A DNA stretch of 64,000 nt from a bacterium (GTDB lineage Bacteria; UBA8248). Made by a program: the position numbers and the translations under genes. Below are positions 3,452-39,347 of the stretch, piece after piece; position 1 is the stretch's first letter, and every line of letters starts with the position of its first letter. The notes beneath the pieces are model-generated. The model had not been told where the DNA came from and did no database searches. It saw nothing but the letters and a program-made list of their open reading frames with translations. The stretch covers positions 288,001-352,000 of the forward strand of contig CBDATS010000008.1 in assembly GCA_965200245.1 (NCBI GenBank). The letters are read 5' to 3'.

Positions 3452-4419
3452 ATGGCGCAAGAGGCTCACGCATCAAGAGAAGCTGCCACTCCTCAAGGGC
3501 GGCAATCGGCTTATAACGTACTGGTTCGCTTCGGCCCAGTCATCGGGCTCGCGTTCCTGTGTCTTGTTCTCTCCGTTACGTCCGAAGCCTTCCTGAACCC
3601 GGCGAACTTGATCAATGTCGCTCGCCAAGTCTCCATCAACGCCATCATCGCTGCTGGCATGACGTTCGTCATGATCTCGGGCGGGTTCGACCTATCGGTT
3701 GGCTCCGTCATGGCACTCTCGGGCGTGGTGGGCATCATGGCGATGAATGCCTTCGGTGACGCGGCGGGAATCCTGATCATGTTGGCCGTTGCCCTTTCCT
3801 GTGGCCTTTGGAACGGTCTGCTCGTCGCCTTCGCGCGCATCAACGCCTTTGTGGCCACGCTTGCCGGGATGACCATCTACCACGGCATCGCGCTCGTGGT
3901 GACAGACTCGTTTCCTGTCACGCGCTTCGGGGGCTGGTACCGCAACTTCGGCTAGGGGCACCTCTTCGGGCTGCCGATTCCGATCTACGTTCTCATCATC
4001 GTCTATGTCGTCGCCCACATCGTGCTGACGCGCCGTCGGTCTACGCCGTGGGCGGGAACGAGGAGGCCGCCCGCCTCTCGGGCATCAACGTGGAGCGCAT
4101 CCGCACGTCGGTATTCACCATATGCGGCTTCGGCGTGGGTATCGCCTCGCTTCTGATCATCGGGCGGTTGCAGTCCGCGCAGGCGAACATGGGCATTCAG
4201 GCTGAACTTGACGCCATCGCTGCTGTCGTCATCGGCGGTACGAGCCTCGCAGGTGGGGAGGGGCGTGTATTCGGAACCCTTGCGGGCGCCTTCACCATCG
4301 GGGTTTTAAACAACGGTCTGAACCTACATGACATCAGTGCACACTGGCAGCTTGTGGCCAAGGGCGTCGTCATTGCGCTCGCCGTTATCATTGATCGCCA
4401 ACTCGTGCACAGACAGTGA
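3452..4419 (+). pseudogene. rbsC: Ribose-type sugar ABC permease, disrupted
   Basis: N-half has AAGMTFVMISGGFDLSVG; in-frame TAG at 3953-3955; read-through gives GHLFGLPIPIYVLIIVYVVAHIVLTR; frameshift/deletion at ~4033-4035; C-half YAVGGNEEAARLSG...ELDAIAAVVIGGTSLAGGEG is in another frame. Confidence 0.88.
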
Positions 4420-14068: not shown

Positions 14069-15083
14069 ATGGCGAAAAACACCAACAGATCGGAAGTCCG
14101 ATATGCCTTGGTGGATTGTGACCCAGGTGTGGATGACGCACTGGCCTTGGCGATGGGCTTCGCTTCGCCTTTTTTCAGGTACGACGCTGTGACGAGCGTA
14201 CATGGCAATGTTTCCGCGCGCCTGGCTTACCGGAACGCAAGAAGGCTTACCGTATTCTTGCGTAATCATCTCGCTTTTCCTGTCCCTGCCGTTCCCGTCT
14301 ATCCGGGAGCATCACTTGCTCTTGACGGAAGTCGTCTGAACCGGAGCGAATCACGCGCGATTCACGGCCCAGAAGGCCTTGGAGCGATGTTCGACAGGAA
14401 AAGGTGCTTGCGCCCTCCGGGCGGGAGAAATTCGAAACTGGCTTGGGAGGTGATCGCAGAGCGGGCCAAGGAGCGTGGTTCGGGGTTGACGATTGTCACG
14501 CTGGGGCCACTGACGAATCTCGCTCTGGCTCTCCGGCGTGCGCCTGGAGCCTTCTCCCGCGTGAGGCGAATTGTTGTCATGGGGGGGGGCCGCGAGGATG
14601 CCAGGGAACGTTACGCCTGCAGCCGAGTTCAACATCTATTGCGACCCGTTGGCGGCAAAGGAGGTGTTCGCATCTGGGCTGCCTATCACCATGGTGGGTC
14701 TCGACGTGACGAGACGCGCACTCATTCGTGTCGATGAATTCGAGGGTGGCGGGTCGTTCCGCGCGGCCATGAGGGATCTCATCCAGGTCTATGCGCGATT
14801 CGCCAGAAAAAGCAGGGGTGCCGAGGACATCACCCTGCACGACCCGCTGGTGCTGGCCGTCGCAATGAAGCCGGATTTGGTGGAGACCATTCCCTGTCGA
14901 GTTGACGTAGACGCGAGCCGTGGCATCGCACGGGGCATGACGGTGGTGGATCTGAGAGAGAACAGGGGTAGACGAGTTGAAAACCCGGTCCATGTGGCCA
15001 TGGACTTGGACGTAAAGGATTTTTTGGCGTTTTTCGTCTCTCACCTGCAAAATTACCGTGGCTGGGACGCCGATGAAGAATAA
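14069..15083 (+). pseudogene. Inosine-uridine-preferring nucleoside hydrolase, frameshifted
   Basis: DCDPGVDD, HG, LGPLTN in frame 1; GNVTPAAEFN, VGLDVT, LHDPL in another frame; shift maps to a G9 run at 14581-14589 (G8 restores MGGAARMPGN). Confidence 0.85.
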
Positions 15084-19430: not shown

Positions 19431-19662
19431 CGAGGGTCTCCTGTATTCATCGAGAGCCTTCTGAAAAAGTGGGGCTATGCTAAAAAGGGGCCATCGTGGT
19501 GTCAAGACCGTCGGGGTGAAAAAGCATGTTTCATCACCGCAATGTATCGGGAGAGGTATGCTTCGGTTTGAAATGTCTTCTCCGCAGGAGTATAAATGAT
19601 GGCGTTTCAAGATTCGCTGCTTCAGGCTTTTTGGCCGCATTCATTTTCAGGAGGACGCATTC

Positions 19663-20163
19663 ATGCCAAGAATGACGGAAAAGATGATCGACTCGGGCGA
19701 TCCCTTCCCGAGTCTCGAGGTGAACCAGGTGGGAGGAGGCAAAATCTCCCTGCCCGGCGATCTCGCGGGCGATTGGGGGGTGGTTCTGCTCTACCGCGGA
19801 CACTGGTGACCGTACTGCAAGCAGCAGCTTACGGCCTTCGACAGGGCGGCGAAGCTCAAGGAAGAAGGCGTCAAAGTTGTTGCAGCCTCCGTGGACATGG
19901 AGGAGAACGCGAAGGGAACGGTCGAGGAATGCGGCCTCAGCTTCCCCGTCGGCTATGGTTTGGATAACAAGCATATTTCAGAACTTACGGGGTGTTTCTA
20001 CGAAGAAAAACGCCAGATCATCCACAGCACGGGCTATGTCTTGAAGCCAGATGGAACGGTGGCCGTCGCCGTCTACAGCACTGGCCCCATCGGCCGCCTC
20101 GTGTGGCAGGATGTGTTGGGCCTGGTTCAGTTCTACAAGAAGATGATGGCGTCCCAGAACTAG
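19663..20163 (+). CDS. AhpC/TSA (peroxiredoxin-like) selenoprotein, UxxC motif
   Basis: AGGAGG RBS; MPRMTEKMIDSGDPFPSL...VVLLYRGHW-TGA(19807-19809)-PYC-KQQL continues in frame into ORF 19891..20163; TGA at first Cys of the family motif YRGHWCPYC. Confidence 0.88.
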
Positions 20164-20176
20164 CGCATCTTTTTCG

Positions 20177-20215
20177 AACACCCCCTCGTTTATCCTCTTC
20201 GAGGGGGTGTTTTTT
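20177..20215 (+). terminator. Rho-independent terminator
   Basis: AACACCCCCTCG-loop-CGAGGGGGTGTT followed by T run. Confidence 0.88.
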
Positions 20216-20317
20216 ATGTGCAGGTTTGGAGGGATTTTTTTATGGCCTCGCAGGAGAGATAACATCGCAGGCGAGTGATACGATCACATTCATCATCACG
20301 AGAAAACGGAGTCCATC

Positions 20318-20845
20318 ATGCCGAAAGTGAACCAGTACTTTCTCGACACTGGGGATGATTTCCCGAATCTTGAAATTCCCAAGGTAGGCGGCGGAACCAT
20401 CACCCTGCCCGATGACTTGCTCGGTTCGTGGGGCGTCGTCCTTTTCTACCGCAGCCACTGGTGACCCTACTGACTCGCACAGATGGCGGGATTCTCCCGG
20501 GCGGGAGAAAGATTGGAAGCTGAGGGTATCAAGGTGGTGGCGGCGTCCACCGACCCGGAAGAGGAAGCACTGCAGTCCATCGAGGCGAGCAAAGTGAATT
20601 TTCCGGTGGGGCACAGTCTCGATCCCGCGCGTATCTCGGAAACGACGGGGGCCTTCTACTCGCCCGAGGCGGGCGAGAAGCCCAGGCCGTTTCTTCACGC
20701 GACGAACTTTCTGCTTTCACCTGACGGCAAGGTGAACATTTCGCTCTATAGTTCAGGTCCCCTGGGGCGGCTCGTCTGGCAGAATGTCATCCAGGCCGTA
20801 CAGTTCCGAAAAAAGCGCATGGCGGCCGTGCAGGCGCAGCAGTAG
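20318..20845 (+). CDS. AhpC/TSA (peroxiredoxin-like) selenoprotein paralogue, UxxU motif
   Basis: GGAG RBS; MPKVNQYFLDTGDDFPNL...VVLFYRSHW-TGA(20462)-PY-TGA(20471)-LAQ joins in frame to ORF 20483..20845; paralogous to upstream gene over full length. Confidence 0.8.
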
Positions 20846-21285
20846 TCGAACCACAACGGGCCGGAGGGGTATCTCCCTCCGGCCCGTTGTGGCGGTTGCG
20901 AATTTTTCAGGCGCTTGGTCACCTCGTCTGCGTCGGGCGCCTTGTTGTAGTCTTGATCCAGAGTGCCGTCGCCTGCGGGGCTTTTGACGGCGAAGAACTT
21001 CGCGGGTCCTTCGGTGATATGGATACCGTGACGTGTGTTTCTGGGAATATGTACCAGATCGCCGGGGCCGACCTCGTGGACCTCATCCCCACAGATCATG
21101 TTCATCTTGCCTTCGAGCATCAGGATGTACTGCTCCTCGTTGGGATGAAAGTGGGGTGGTGGGCCGTCGCCTTGGGGATAAATCACCCAGCCCACTTTCA
21201 TCAACTCTCCCGCTGTCGCGTGGTTTACGGCAGGACCCACCGCCGAGGATCCTTGGGGCAGGTCTTCCATTTTATAAAAGGGCAT
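20746..21285 (-). CDS. Cupin domain protein (homology ends ~20900; C-terminal read-through)
   Basis: PPPHFHPNEEQ, HIPRNTRHG; paralogue of next gene; tail runs through terminator into opposite-strand gene. Confidence 0.85.
   Translation of the reverse strand: MPFYKMEDLPQGSSAVGPAVNHATAGELMKVGWVIYPQGDGPPPHFHPNEEQYILMLEGKMNMICGDEVHEVGPGDLVHIPRNTRHGIHITEGPAKFFAVKSPAGDGTLDQDYNKAPDADEVTKRLKNSQPPQRAGGRYPSGPLWFDYCCACTAAMRFFRNCTAWMTFCQTSRPRGPEL
20851..20892. terminator. Perfect 18-bp hairpin between convergent genes
   Basis: CCACAACGGGCCGGAGGG-GTATCT-CCCTCCGGCCCGTTGTGG. Confidence 0.85.
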
Positions 21286-25804: not shown

Positions 25805-25896
25805 GGAGAGGTGGCCGAGTCCGGTTTAAGGCGGCAGACTCGAAATCTGTTGTGCAGGTAACTGCACCGGGGGTTCAAATCCCTCCCTCTCCGCCA
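25805..25896 (+). tRNA. tRNA-Ser (anticodon CGA)
   Basis: Acceptor GGAGAGG/CCTCTCC-GCCA, anticodon arm GCAGA-CTCGAAA-TCTGT, long variable arm GTGCAG-GTAA-CTGCAC, T-loop TTCAAAT. Confidence 0.97.
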
Positions 25897-37394: not shown

Positions 37395-38492
37395 TCAGGA
37401 ATATCCCGGCTCATCCTCAGAAGTCGCGTAGAAGCGGAAGTAGGCGAGGGCAGCATATGCTTTCGCCTCGATGTGGTCGTCTTGAATCGTCAGCTTGACG
37501 TGGTTGATTCCCTTGTAGAGGATGGACATGCCTTTTTCCTCGAAAATCCTCTCGACCGCCGGGAAGTCGCGCAGACCTTCGCCCTTCTCAGGCAAACACC
37601 ATCGCATCTGTTCTAGGTAGTCCAACACGGAACTCCAGGCGTTGCGCCCCGACGTCAACCAGTAATTGAGGTTCGAGGGTTGTCTCGGCCTGTACATATC
37701 GAGTCCCAGGCGCGGCCCTACGCCGTCTGCACCGACATCGGACGACAGGCGGAAGATCGGTGTCAGATGGTGCATCTCTTCTATGATGTCCATCACCTTC
37801 TGGGTGGGGCCGTCCCATTTCAGGCGCTTCAGGAAAGCGGGTACGTTGCGCTGCTTCAGGTCATCGATGACGAGTCGAATATAGCGCGGTTCGCGCTCGG
37901 CCACGGCACCTATCTGGTCCACCACGCCGCTACGGGGCAGGGCGGCGAAGACGCGCTCCACGGCGATTCGCTCCTTCTCGTTCTCGTTCCAGCCGACGGC
38001 GCTCGCGACGGCGGCGGCCAGATTGTCGGGGGTTCGCTCGCGTGCAGTTTGTTCGTCGAGTTCAGTTTGCGGCTTGAGTGCCAGAAACACACCAGGGGCC
38101 AGGTGCCGTCCCGGAGGGACTTTCACGATGTCATATCCGAGCATCGACGCACGAAACCAGCCTGCCAGAGAGGGTTCAGAAGGGGGTCCCATCCCTTTTA
38201 TTCGGGAATAGGCCCGGCTCAGGGCCACCTCGGAAGCGTTGGCTCCCGTTTCCTCGCCACGGCGGATGAAATACTCCATGGAGGAACGCCCTGGCTCAAG
38301 CGAGACGAAATAATCGGCCGCAGGTTCAGGTTCGTTCAGCCGGAACTCGAATGCCGCGTAGTTCAAAGTCAGCCAACTGGGCAGGTCGCCGACGCGCTCC
38401 AGCAGGCACCCCCACCACGGGTCGTCCAGCAAGGTGGGGGGAATGAAGCGACGCAGCCTTGGGAAAGCATCTCCGAAACTCTCAGACATCAT
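37395..38492 (-). CDS. Uncharacterised ~365-aa soluble protein; candidate RiPP maturase (possible aromatic prenyltransferase fold)
   Basis: Directly downstream of and co-oriented with NHLP precursors; motifs FEFRL..ADY, LGYD, QIG..RE...IRL, DV...GVGPRLGLD, NHVKL...EAKAY; gene is well supported, function is inference. Confidence 0.7.
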   Translation of the reverse strand: MMSESFGDAFPRLRRFIPPTLLDDPWWGCLLERVGDLPSWLTLNYAAFEFRLNEPEPAADYFVSLEPGRSSMEYFIRRGEETGANASEVALSRAYSRIKGMGPPSEPSLAGWFRASMLGYDIVKVPPGRHLAPGVFLALKPQTELDEQTARERTPDNLAAAVASAVGWNENEKERIAVERVFAALPRSGVVDQIGAVAEREPRYIRLVIDDLKQRNVPAFLKRLKWDGPTQKVMDIIEEMHHLTPIFRLSSDVGADGVGPRLGLDMYRPRQPSNLNYWLTSGRNAWSSVLDYLEQMRWCLPEKGEGLRDFPAVERIFEEKGMSILYKGINHVKLTIQDDHIEAKAYAALAYFRFYATSEDEPGYS

Positions 38493-38697
38493 CGAACCCT
38501 GTTTCTTTGTCGGTAGGATACACGGTATTCGAGGCGGTGATGAGCGAACATTGCTATCGGATCTCCCTTCCACGAAGGACCGAAAATACGCTCAAACCCG
38601 CATGCCAAGAGTCCGAACAAAGTCCCTTTCGTGGATTTTGGCAGACCGAACGGGCAGACAGTTAAACTGTTTTGTTTGATATAGCCTATCGAGAGTT

Positions 38698-38976
38698 TTA
38701 GCTCAAGCTGTTCCATGCGTTGATGAAATTCGCATATGCCTGTGTGCCAGCCGCGACGGCGCTCAACTCCGCCTCGCTCAACTCGGAAGGTGGCAAGACG
38801 AGGTTGAAACTCATGATGCCGTCTTGATGCACACTGATTTGGAACTCCTCGGGAATGGCAACTCCCAACTCCCGCTCCATAGCGGCCTTTGGGTCAGCTA
38901 TTAGCTCGGTGCGGAACGCTTCGTTCTCACTGGCTTTTTTTGCGATTATCTCGCGAACTTCGTCTCCGGTTTTCAT
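38698..38976 (-). CDS. NHLP-leader (nitrile hydratase-like) RiPP precursor; core TQAYANFINAWNSLS
   Basis: I..KA....FR..L.ADPKAA...ELG..IP....I.VH......LVLPP..ELSEAEL.AVAAG leader; GGAG RBS. Confidence 0.92.
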   Translation of the reverse strand: MKTGDEVREIIAKKASENEAFRTELIADPKAAMERELGVAIPEEFQISVHQDGIMSFNLVLPPSELSEAELSAVAAGTQAYANFINAWNSLS

Positions 38977-39347
38977 TGTCTTGAAATCTCCAGATAGCAT
39001 TCGACCGGAAAGGATACTTGAGTCTTCCTTCCTGATTCAGGCAAAGTATAAAATATTGGCGGTTCGGGTTCAACCATATTCCATGCGTTAACGGAATTCG
39101 CAAATGCCTGCGTGCCAGCCAAGTTGGTCCTCAACTTCGCCTCGCTCAACTCGGCCCGCGTCAATACGAAATTGATGATCAAGGTACCGTCTTGATGCAC
39201 GCTGAACTGGAGCACCTCGGGAATGGCAATTCCCAACTCGCGCTGCATGGCGACCTTGGGGTACACCTGCAATGCGGCGCGGAACGTCTCATTTGAGACG
39301 ACCTTGCGAACGATTTCTTCCCACACTCCTTCCAAAGTTTTCACCAC
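38973..39347 (-). CDS. Second, divergent NHLP-leader precursor; core begins TQAFANSVNAWNM, C-terminal extension (possibly decaying)
   Basis: Colinear with first precursor (RELGIAIPE, SVHQDG, ELSEA..LAG|TQA.AN..NAWN); conserved leader residues changed (DPK to YPK, LPP to LTR, EL to KL). Confidence 0.75.
   Translation of the reverse strand: MVKTLEGVWEEIVRKVVSNETFRAALQVYPKVAMQRELGIAIPEVLQFSVHQDGTLIINFVLTRAELSEAKLRTNLAGTQAFANSVNAWNMVEPEPPIFYTLPESGRKTQVSFPVECYLEISRQ
39045..39073 (-). promoter_or_regulatory. Sigma70-like promoter for the intact precursor
   Basis: Minus strand TTGAAC-17 nt-TATACT. Confidence 0.5.

Follow-up and report, generated by a model that had tools for sequence, protein, structure and literature searches.

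The 'Prx-like thiol:disulfide oxidoreductase' family (PF00578; Prx, peroxiredoxin) is listed in two reviews with the motifs 'UxxC, UxxU' and one to two selenocysteine (Sec, U) residues (PMC9312934, 2022; PMC13188914, 2026), and UxxU sequences in another Prx-like family were reported in a 2008 ocean-sampling study (PMC2398784). Among other proteins with this arrangement, SelL is a UxxU selenoprotein of aquatic eukaryotes for which a diselenide has been reported (Shchedrina et al., 2007, as cited in PMC2397514), and for the UXXU-type hydrogenases the possibility of a single downstream selenocysteine insertion sequence (SECIS) for both UGA codons has been raised and a mosaic switching of motif types described (PMC13582414, 2026). 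The present analysis concerns a 64,000-nt stretch of DNA (hereafter the window) from a bacterium of the GTDB lineage UBA8248 (assembly GCA_965200245.1, contig CBDATS010000008.1, positions 288,001 to 352,000 of the forward strand), in which one gene, here named gene B, carries two in-frame TGA codons at the two positions of a CxxC-type redox motif and is preceded by a tandem paralogue, gene A, carrying one. The SECIS elements of eukaryotes lie in the 3' untranslated region and impose no spacing problem; work in E. coli indicates that the bacterial SECIS is required at a set distance from its UGA. Two Sec codons placed three codons apart are therefore a mechanistic question in bacteria, and the locus described here is a compact natural test of whether one SECIS can serve two UGAs.

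Gene B (20318-20845, + strand; positions are those of the window) has 175 codons and ends at TAG 20843-20845. Translation showed that its frame is open save for TGA 20462-20464 (UGA1) and TGA 20471-20473 (UGA2), which are offset by nine bases, that is, three codons. The active site reads HW-TGA-PY-TGA-LAQ, within the translation ...VVLFYRSHW-U-PY-U-LAQMAGFSRAGE... (longer excerpt: ...GVVLFYRSHW-U-PY-U-LAQMAGFSRAGERLE...). The product matched PF00578 (AhpC/TSA) with an E-value of 3.4e-19 and 69.4 bits, against a cutoff of 26, and Redoxin as a second, weaker Pfam match, and was thus assigned to the AhpC/TSA-fold (Prx-like) proteins, with a predicted W-U-P-Y-U redox motif. In a 73-row alignment composed of the two window proteins, with U entered as C, and of 71 full-length Cys homologues, of which the few with a source name were from actinobacteria, W48, C49, P50 and C52 were invariant. 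UGA1 occupies the first (N-terminal) position of the motif and aligns with C49; UGA2 occupies the second and aligns with C52, as well as with the peroxidatic Cys of true peroxiredoxins. The translation and this alignment confirmed what had been proposed from the sequence alone (hereafter the original prediction), namely an otherwise intact frame with two TGAs at the Cys positions of the family motif WCPYC.

Structure prediction with AlphaFold2, based on the 73 aligned sequences, gave a single compact domain for gene B (predicted local distance difference test score 93.1, predicted template modelling score 0.89), with residues 49 and 52 to either side of the beginning of a helix formed by residues 50-61. 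Foldseek searches with this model returned peroxiredoxins first, the best being Bcp4 (3hjp; template modelling scores 0.75/0.83), followed by AhpC and Prx6 types at 16-23% identity. No hydrophobic segment was visible at the N-terminus when it was inspected by eye, and a cytoplasmic location is predicted on that basis. In the public gene calls, the closest orthologues of gene B appeared as fragments of 100-122 residues, and those fragments that were aligned begin after the second TGA, so that UxxU proteins of this kind are easily missed in annotation.

The conservation of the two TGA codons was determined in 28 related loci, which were retrieved with a profile of the C-terminal part of gene B from a GTDB collection holding one genome per species. 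All of them are from metagenome-assembled genomes and share 63-92% protein identity with gene B; those with a stated phylum are labelled Nitrospinota, Nitrospinaceae or Candidatus Tectomicrobia. This comparison, one of the checks suggested by the original prediction, revealed TGA at the first site in 29/29 gene B copies (window plus 28 loci). The second site is TGA in 15/28 loci (L005, L010, L011, L012, L014, L015 and L017-L025), or 16/29 copies with the window included, TGC in 12 and TGT in one (L016). When gene A is counted as well, the first-position Sec codon was present in 56/56 copies. A maximum-likelihood tree for all 56 gene A and gene B proteins, rooted on gene A and including the apparently damaged copies L027 and L028, placed UxxU on each of the deep branches within the clade of gene B and required a minimum of five U/C switches at the second site, a number forced by the well-supported branches alone. 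An ancestral UxxU with repeated change to Cys takes fewer steps than the reverse and would be favoured on that count, the direction itself not being provable. On this comparison of relatives, the first Sec is read as indispensable and the second as facultative, the latter because of the at least five Sec/Cys switches.

The region downstream of both TGA codons is under purifying selection. Pairwise ratios of nonsynonymous to synonymous substitution rates (dN/dS) over codons 53-115, calculated for the window against nine UxxU orthologues, were 0.02-0.26 in eight of them; for L023 the synonymous rate was saturated and gave no value. Separate translation of the C-terminal part from Met56, the only nearby Met in the window, was ruled out, since codon 56 is Leu (CTN) in 14/27 copies and hence no restart codon is conserved. 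An altered genetic code, with TGA read as Trp or Gly throughout, was likewise rejected because TGA is the ordinary stop of 20/44 Pfam-supported genes of the window and also of several gene A and gene B orthologues. The base that follows UGA1 (20465) is C in 29/29 copies, and the base that follows UGA2 (20474) is C in 13/16 copies, compared to 4/13 after TGC or TGT, counts that ignore relatedness. UGA-C is a weak termination context, and the C after UGA2 may reflect selection for such a context.

Downstream of the two codons lies a SECIS-type hairpin (20492-20509, +) with a 7-bp stem, TTCTCCC/GGGAGAA, and the apical loop GGGC. The original prediction had placed it about 35 and 26 nt after the TGAs, and the sequence bears this out: the loop opens at 20499, which is base 35 after UGA1 and base 26 after UGA2, with 34 and 25 nt between. 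The stem was identical in 28/29 copies, the exception being the divergent L026, and the loop changed to GGGT in L009 and L013. The six codons of the hairpin (F59, S60, R61, A62, G63 and E64) were each represented by one codon across 26 sequences (6/6), compared to synonymous invariance in 1/80 degenerate codons elsewhere (Fisher p = 1.5e-8); when L026 was kept, the contrast was 5/6 versus 1/80 (p = 1e-6). The apparently damaged copies L027 and L028 were left out of these codon statistics. In the AT-richer loci L023-L025, the same 18 nt were retained while the adjoining codons drifted. These results revealed that the hairpin is under constraint at the RNA level.

The hairpin was also part of the minimum free energy (MFE) fold, and its properties were compared with the bacterial SECIS consensus as given in the Fig. 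2 legend of PMC13188914. The apical loop has 4 nt (consensus 3-9 nt) and the upper stem 7 bp (4-16 bp); the first two loop positions are GG (at least one G); the UGA-to-loop spacing is 34 nt for UGA1 and 25 nt for UGA2 (16-37 nt); and the MFE of the 18-nt hairpin on its own is -9.9 kcal/mol (-7.5 kcal/mol or lower), or -10.6 kcal/mol when 24 nt are folded. Since every value lies within the consensus, the one hairpin qualifies for both UGAs. By this published consensus, 20492-20509 is a predicted SECIS, through which SelB would bind and Sec would be inserted. The original idea of two recoded UGAs possibly served by one SECIS is accordingly supported by the conservation of UGA2, by the purifying selection downstream and by the fit of the hairpin for both codons.

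Gene A, on which the original prediction was silent, was added to the analysis as a tandem paralogue located directly upstream (19663-20163, +). It has 166 codons, matches PF00578 with an E-value of 1.2e-18 and shares 53-54% identity with gene B, depending on the alignment. Translation and orthologue alignment identified a single in-frame UGA (19807-19809, +), giving the predicted motif W-U-P-Y-C (UxxC). Gene A was found in 26/28 loci besides the window, L020 and L022 being the loci in which it was not found; UPYC was present in 27/27 copies, which formed their own clade with 100/100 support in the maximum-likelihood tree. A candidate SECIS region (19834-19869, +; boundaries uncertain) lies at the place homologous to the gene B hairpin and comprises an outer stem, GCCUUC/GAAGGC, and a variable inner hairpin. 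Consensus folding with alifold paired positions 28-33 with 58-63, and this pairing was kept through G-U changes; synonymously invariant codons numbered 0/9. A protein search with gene A yielded many truncated matches of 91-115 residues among the best 120 listed, which suggests that Sec forms are widespread.

The two genes are separated by a terminator-like hairpin (20179-20215, +) with a 10-bp perfect stem (20179-20188/20200-20209) followed by TTTTTT; the terminator scan placed such a site at 20191-20209, with a T tail. Directly 3' of the gene B stop, between convergent genes, an 18-bp perfect hairpin was read from the sequence at 20851-20892 (assigned to neither strand); it has no T run and was absent from the output of the terminator scan. 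An open reading frame (ORF) with a cupin domain (20746-21285, -) spans this second hairpin and extends over the final 100 nt of gene B, and its true stop may be earlier than called.

Taken together, we consider it likely that gene B encodes a cytoplasmic selenol/diselenide oxidoreductase in which both UGAs are decoded through one SECIS. The product would have a peroxiredoxin fold with Sec at both redox positions (W-U-P-Y-U). The single coding-region hairpin at 20492-20509 would recruit SelB and Sec-tRNA(Sec), so that UGA 20462 would be recoded first and UGA 20471 next. In the thioredoxin-like fold, the two selenols would then be placed where the first helix begins, at its N-terminus, and would alternate between the diselenol form and a diselenide within the molecule, and the protein would act as a low-potential oxidoreductase rather than as a classical peroxiredoxin.

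Several results weigh against this explanation. ARAGORN detected tRNA-Ser(CGA) only and no tRNA-Sec in the window and the 28 loci, Pfam analysis of 67 window ORFs returned no sel genes, and none of selA, selB, selC and selD was seen in the window or the 28 loci, which are a small part of each genome. The hairpin is invariant, with its only stem change in the divergent L026, and therefore gives no covariation; L026 itself keeps UGA1 and yet has at the same place only a weak hairpin of 5 bp, whose loop does not start with G. The 74-nt fold 20462-20535 was no stabler than shuffled sequences (z = -0.46), and fold stability alone is thus no evidence. Rfam searches at the gathering threshold (whole window) and at E <= 10 (19600-20900) returned no SECIS family and only chance-level hits. 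The UGA-to-SECIS spacing is reportedly tight in E. coli fdhF, for which reason one hairpin for two codons 9 nt apart is not self-evident. Cys at position 2 suffices in 13/28 relatives, and two UxxC orthologues appear damaged, L027 (2856-3452) by a frameshift after about codon 116 and L028 (6001-6387) by an in-frame gap about 47 codons long, possibly through errors of assembly or through decay of the copies.

As to the capacity of such bacteria to make selenoproteins, FO_M_Nitrospinota_01, the source genome of L019, appears in Table 2 of the BSepDB paper (PMC13326102) with a count of 54 selenoprotein genes and ranks there among the ten richest bacteria, in the GTDB phylum UBA8248. Only genomes that carry two or more of SelA, SelB and SelD were admitted to BSepDB (PMC13326102). 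One supplementary file of BSepDB contained no occurrence of UxxU, of Prx-like thiol or of the isolate name, and in the literature on selenoproteins of Nitrospina, Nitrospinae and UBA8248, the BSepDB paper was the only relevant one found.

Between UGA2 and the hairpin there is a second, moderately supported helix (helix 1; 20475-20489, +), with arms 20475-20479 and 20485-20489, which in the window consists of 4 bp and one A.G mismatch. In the 23 distinct sequences of the 29 rows, pair 18:24 was CG in 11, GC in 5, AU in 2, GU in 2 and other in 3, and pair 15:27 was CG in 17, GC in 3 and other in 3. Overall, 93.9% of cells were paired, with compensatory changes at these two pairs, and the covariation score was reached by 0/500 shuffles. 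In a slide control, the +3 register scored 0.165 compared to 0.151 for the true register, with only 54.5% of cells paired in the former. Helix 1 was retained in the UxxC orthologues too.

A more elaborate version of the one-SECIS explanation assigns a role to this helix. Here the invariant SECIS would serve two UGAs with helix 1 as a collapsible spacer: folded, it would shorten the path from UGA1 to the SECIS, and once melted by the ribosome, it would leave UGA2 at a similar effective distance. The diselenide would be recycled by the UxxC paralogue, forming a two-step selenium relay. If true, the diselenide would form a redox switch of very low potential, and its second Sec has been exchanged for Cys on at least five occasions. 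We regard this combination as unlikely.

Two separate RNA elements, with helix 1 (20475-20489) acting for UGA1 and the hairpin 20492-20509 for UGA2, would account for the compensatory changes at the two helix 1 pairs, and helix 1 starts 10 nt after UGA1, near the spacing of about 11 nt in the minimal element of E. coli. Helix 1, however, has the loop CAGNU, with G at neither of the first two positions and with 15 nt between the loop and UGA1, and so fails the SECIS consensus. Both helices are unchanged in the UxxC orthologues, in gene A, which has a single UGA, the candidate hairpin corresponds in position to the second hairpin and not to helix 1, and the +3 slide register scores as high as the true one. 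Such a division of labour is quite unlikely.

It is also conceivable that one or both UGAs are read as Cys, either by a SECIS- and SelB-dependent tRNA of the ReC (selC*) type or by near-cognate read-through, which would give UxxC, CxxU or CxxC. In the account of the UXXU-type hydrogenases, tRNA-ReC-like genes are reported in about 56% of UXXU-hydrogenase genomes versus about 2.3% of other Sec-type genomes, and decoding of either UGA as Cys is mentioned as a possibility in that case (PMC13582414); Cys at position 2 is in any case tolerated in 13/28 relatives of gene B. No ReC-type tRNA was present in the window or in the loci, again a small part of each genome, and the long retention of a costly UGA over TGC is hard to explain if the residue inserted were Cys. 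On balance, insertion of Sec rather than of another residue is the reading that we favour at both sites, and Cys decoding appears improbable.

If UGA2 were mainly a selenium-dependent checkpoint, which stops translation when Sec-tRNA is scarce and thereby tunes the yield, the second Sec would not be needed for catalysis, and the at least five Sec/Cys switches at UGA2 do show that its chemistry is dispensable in many lineages; UGA1, however, 9 nt upstream, would already provide the same checkpoint, which makes this role for UGA2 very improbable.

That the second TGA arose as a TGC-to-TGA lesion or by an error of sequencing, or that it signals pseudogenisation, with only a 51-residue peptide made, is hardly credible: TGC and TGA differ by one base, 13/28 relatives have TGC or TGT and the window holds a few frameshift-like gene splits, one at a nine-G run, but the same TGA recurs in 15/28 independent genomes and on all deep branches, the downstream dN/dS is 0.02-0.26 with no conserved internal start, and the single-domain fold of the AlphaFold2 model needs both halves, so that the conservation of UGA2 refutes the caveat raised in the original prediction. 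That caveat had leaned on many nonsense mutations in the window, which did not hold up: among about 50 genes with a Pfam match, only two are split, both in a frameshift-like manner. A nucleoside hydrolase gene is split in two frames at the nine-G run (about 14581-14590, +), where L011 has no extra base, and a branched-chain permease gene (3452-4419, +) is split in two overlapping frames. Either errors in sequencing homopolymers or true frameshifts may account for the two splits, which were probably what had been taken for many nonsense mutations.

Other features of the window were recorded. Its start (1-2532, +) holds part of a 23S rRNA gene together with a gene for 5S rRNA. The tRNA-Ser(CGA) gene (25805-25896, +) is located about 5 kb downstream of gene B and was found at a comparable distance, 2.5-5.5 kb, in 20/28 related loci. 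Two small adjacent paralogous genes (38698-38976, -, and 38973-39347, -) lie within a 184-nt direct repeat of 80% identity. The first was identified as a precursor of a ribosomally synthesized and post-translationally modified peptide of the NHLP leader peptide family (TIGR03793; 62.7 bits, cutoff 50.9) and the second matched TIGR03793 weakly (31.1 bits); the neighbouring ORF of 392 amino acids (37395-38573, -) matched no Pfam or NCBIfam family.

Compared with the described systems, gene B is nearest to the Prx-like thiol:disulfide oxidoreductase family, which it resembles in Pfam domain, in Sec within a CxxC-type motif, in the existence of Cys homologues and in a coding-region SECIS candidate; gene A would be the one-Sec form and gene B the two-Sec form. 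The family exemplar WP_010940744.1 was not recognised among the best 120 matches listed in each of two protein searches, one of them with gene A, and membership is assigned by the domain and motif criteria of the reviews and not by comparison with the exemplar; judged in this way, gene B belongs to the family. As the reviews already list UxxU, a bacterial Prx-like UxxU protein is a known kind, and its novelty is lower than the original prediction implied. Unlike the present analysis, the available parts of these reviews (PMC9312934; PMC13188914) give no account of a Nitrospinota/Tectomicrobia tandem pair, of repeated U/C switching or of a shared hairpin, and in the literature found there was no tandem UxxC plus UxxU pair from Nitrospinota or Tectomicrobia, no set of at least five second-site switches and no absolute invariance of a shared hairpin.

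Canonical peroxiredoxins, including the Sec form PrxU (TxxU), share the fold, and the second Sec of gene B aligns with their peroxidatic Cys. In the HMMER alignment to the 1-Cys AhpC-type structure 7kuu, the T of TPVC falls on U49 and the C of TPVC on the second Sec, and the catalytic Arg aligns with Ala128 of gene B, in a weak and gapped stretch. A canonical peroxiredoxin was rejected, the motif being YRSHWUPYU instead of PxxxTxxC and all NCBIfam peroxiredoxin models scoring far below their cutoffs. With the Prx Thr replaced by the first Sec and Ala aligned at the Prx Arg, we read gene B as a probable oxidoreductase rather than a classical peroxidase. The W-C-x-x-C motif is shared with thioredoxin and ResA-type proteins, in gene B on a peroxiredoxin scaffold; the ResA/TlpA type itself was rejected, with 25.5 bits for ResA (NF002854) against a cutoff of 170 and, by eye, no hydrophobic N-terminus.

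With SelL, which the original prediction had cited for its diselenide, gene B has in common a distant peroxiredoxin-like fold and the UxxU redox motif, and SelL offers a precedent for the diselenide that is proposed here. Membership was rejected, gene B scoring 27.7 bits against a cutoff of 120 on the NCBIfam model SelL_rel_redox (NF040769), and the candidate SECIS of gene B differs in being bacterial and located in the coding region.

The UXXU-type hydrogenases resemble gene B in being bacterial and in having two UGAs three codons apart; they are unrelated enzymes in which the motif binds metal, whereas in gene B it would form a redox pair in a thioredoxin-like fold, with a deeper conservation of the two UGAs. 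For the mechanistic question that both raise, the value of the present locus lies in an 18-nt hairpin without variation in its stem outside L026, at a spacing of 34 and 25 nt, in close relatives whose sole difference is TGA versus TGC at the second site and in a one-Sec paralogue adjoining the gene. That the first-site Sec is never given up, while the Sec at the resolving site is repeatedly swapped with Cys, is relevant to the question of why cells bear the cost of Sec.

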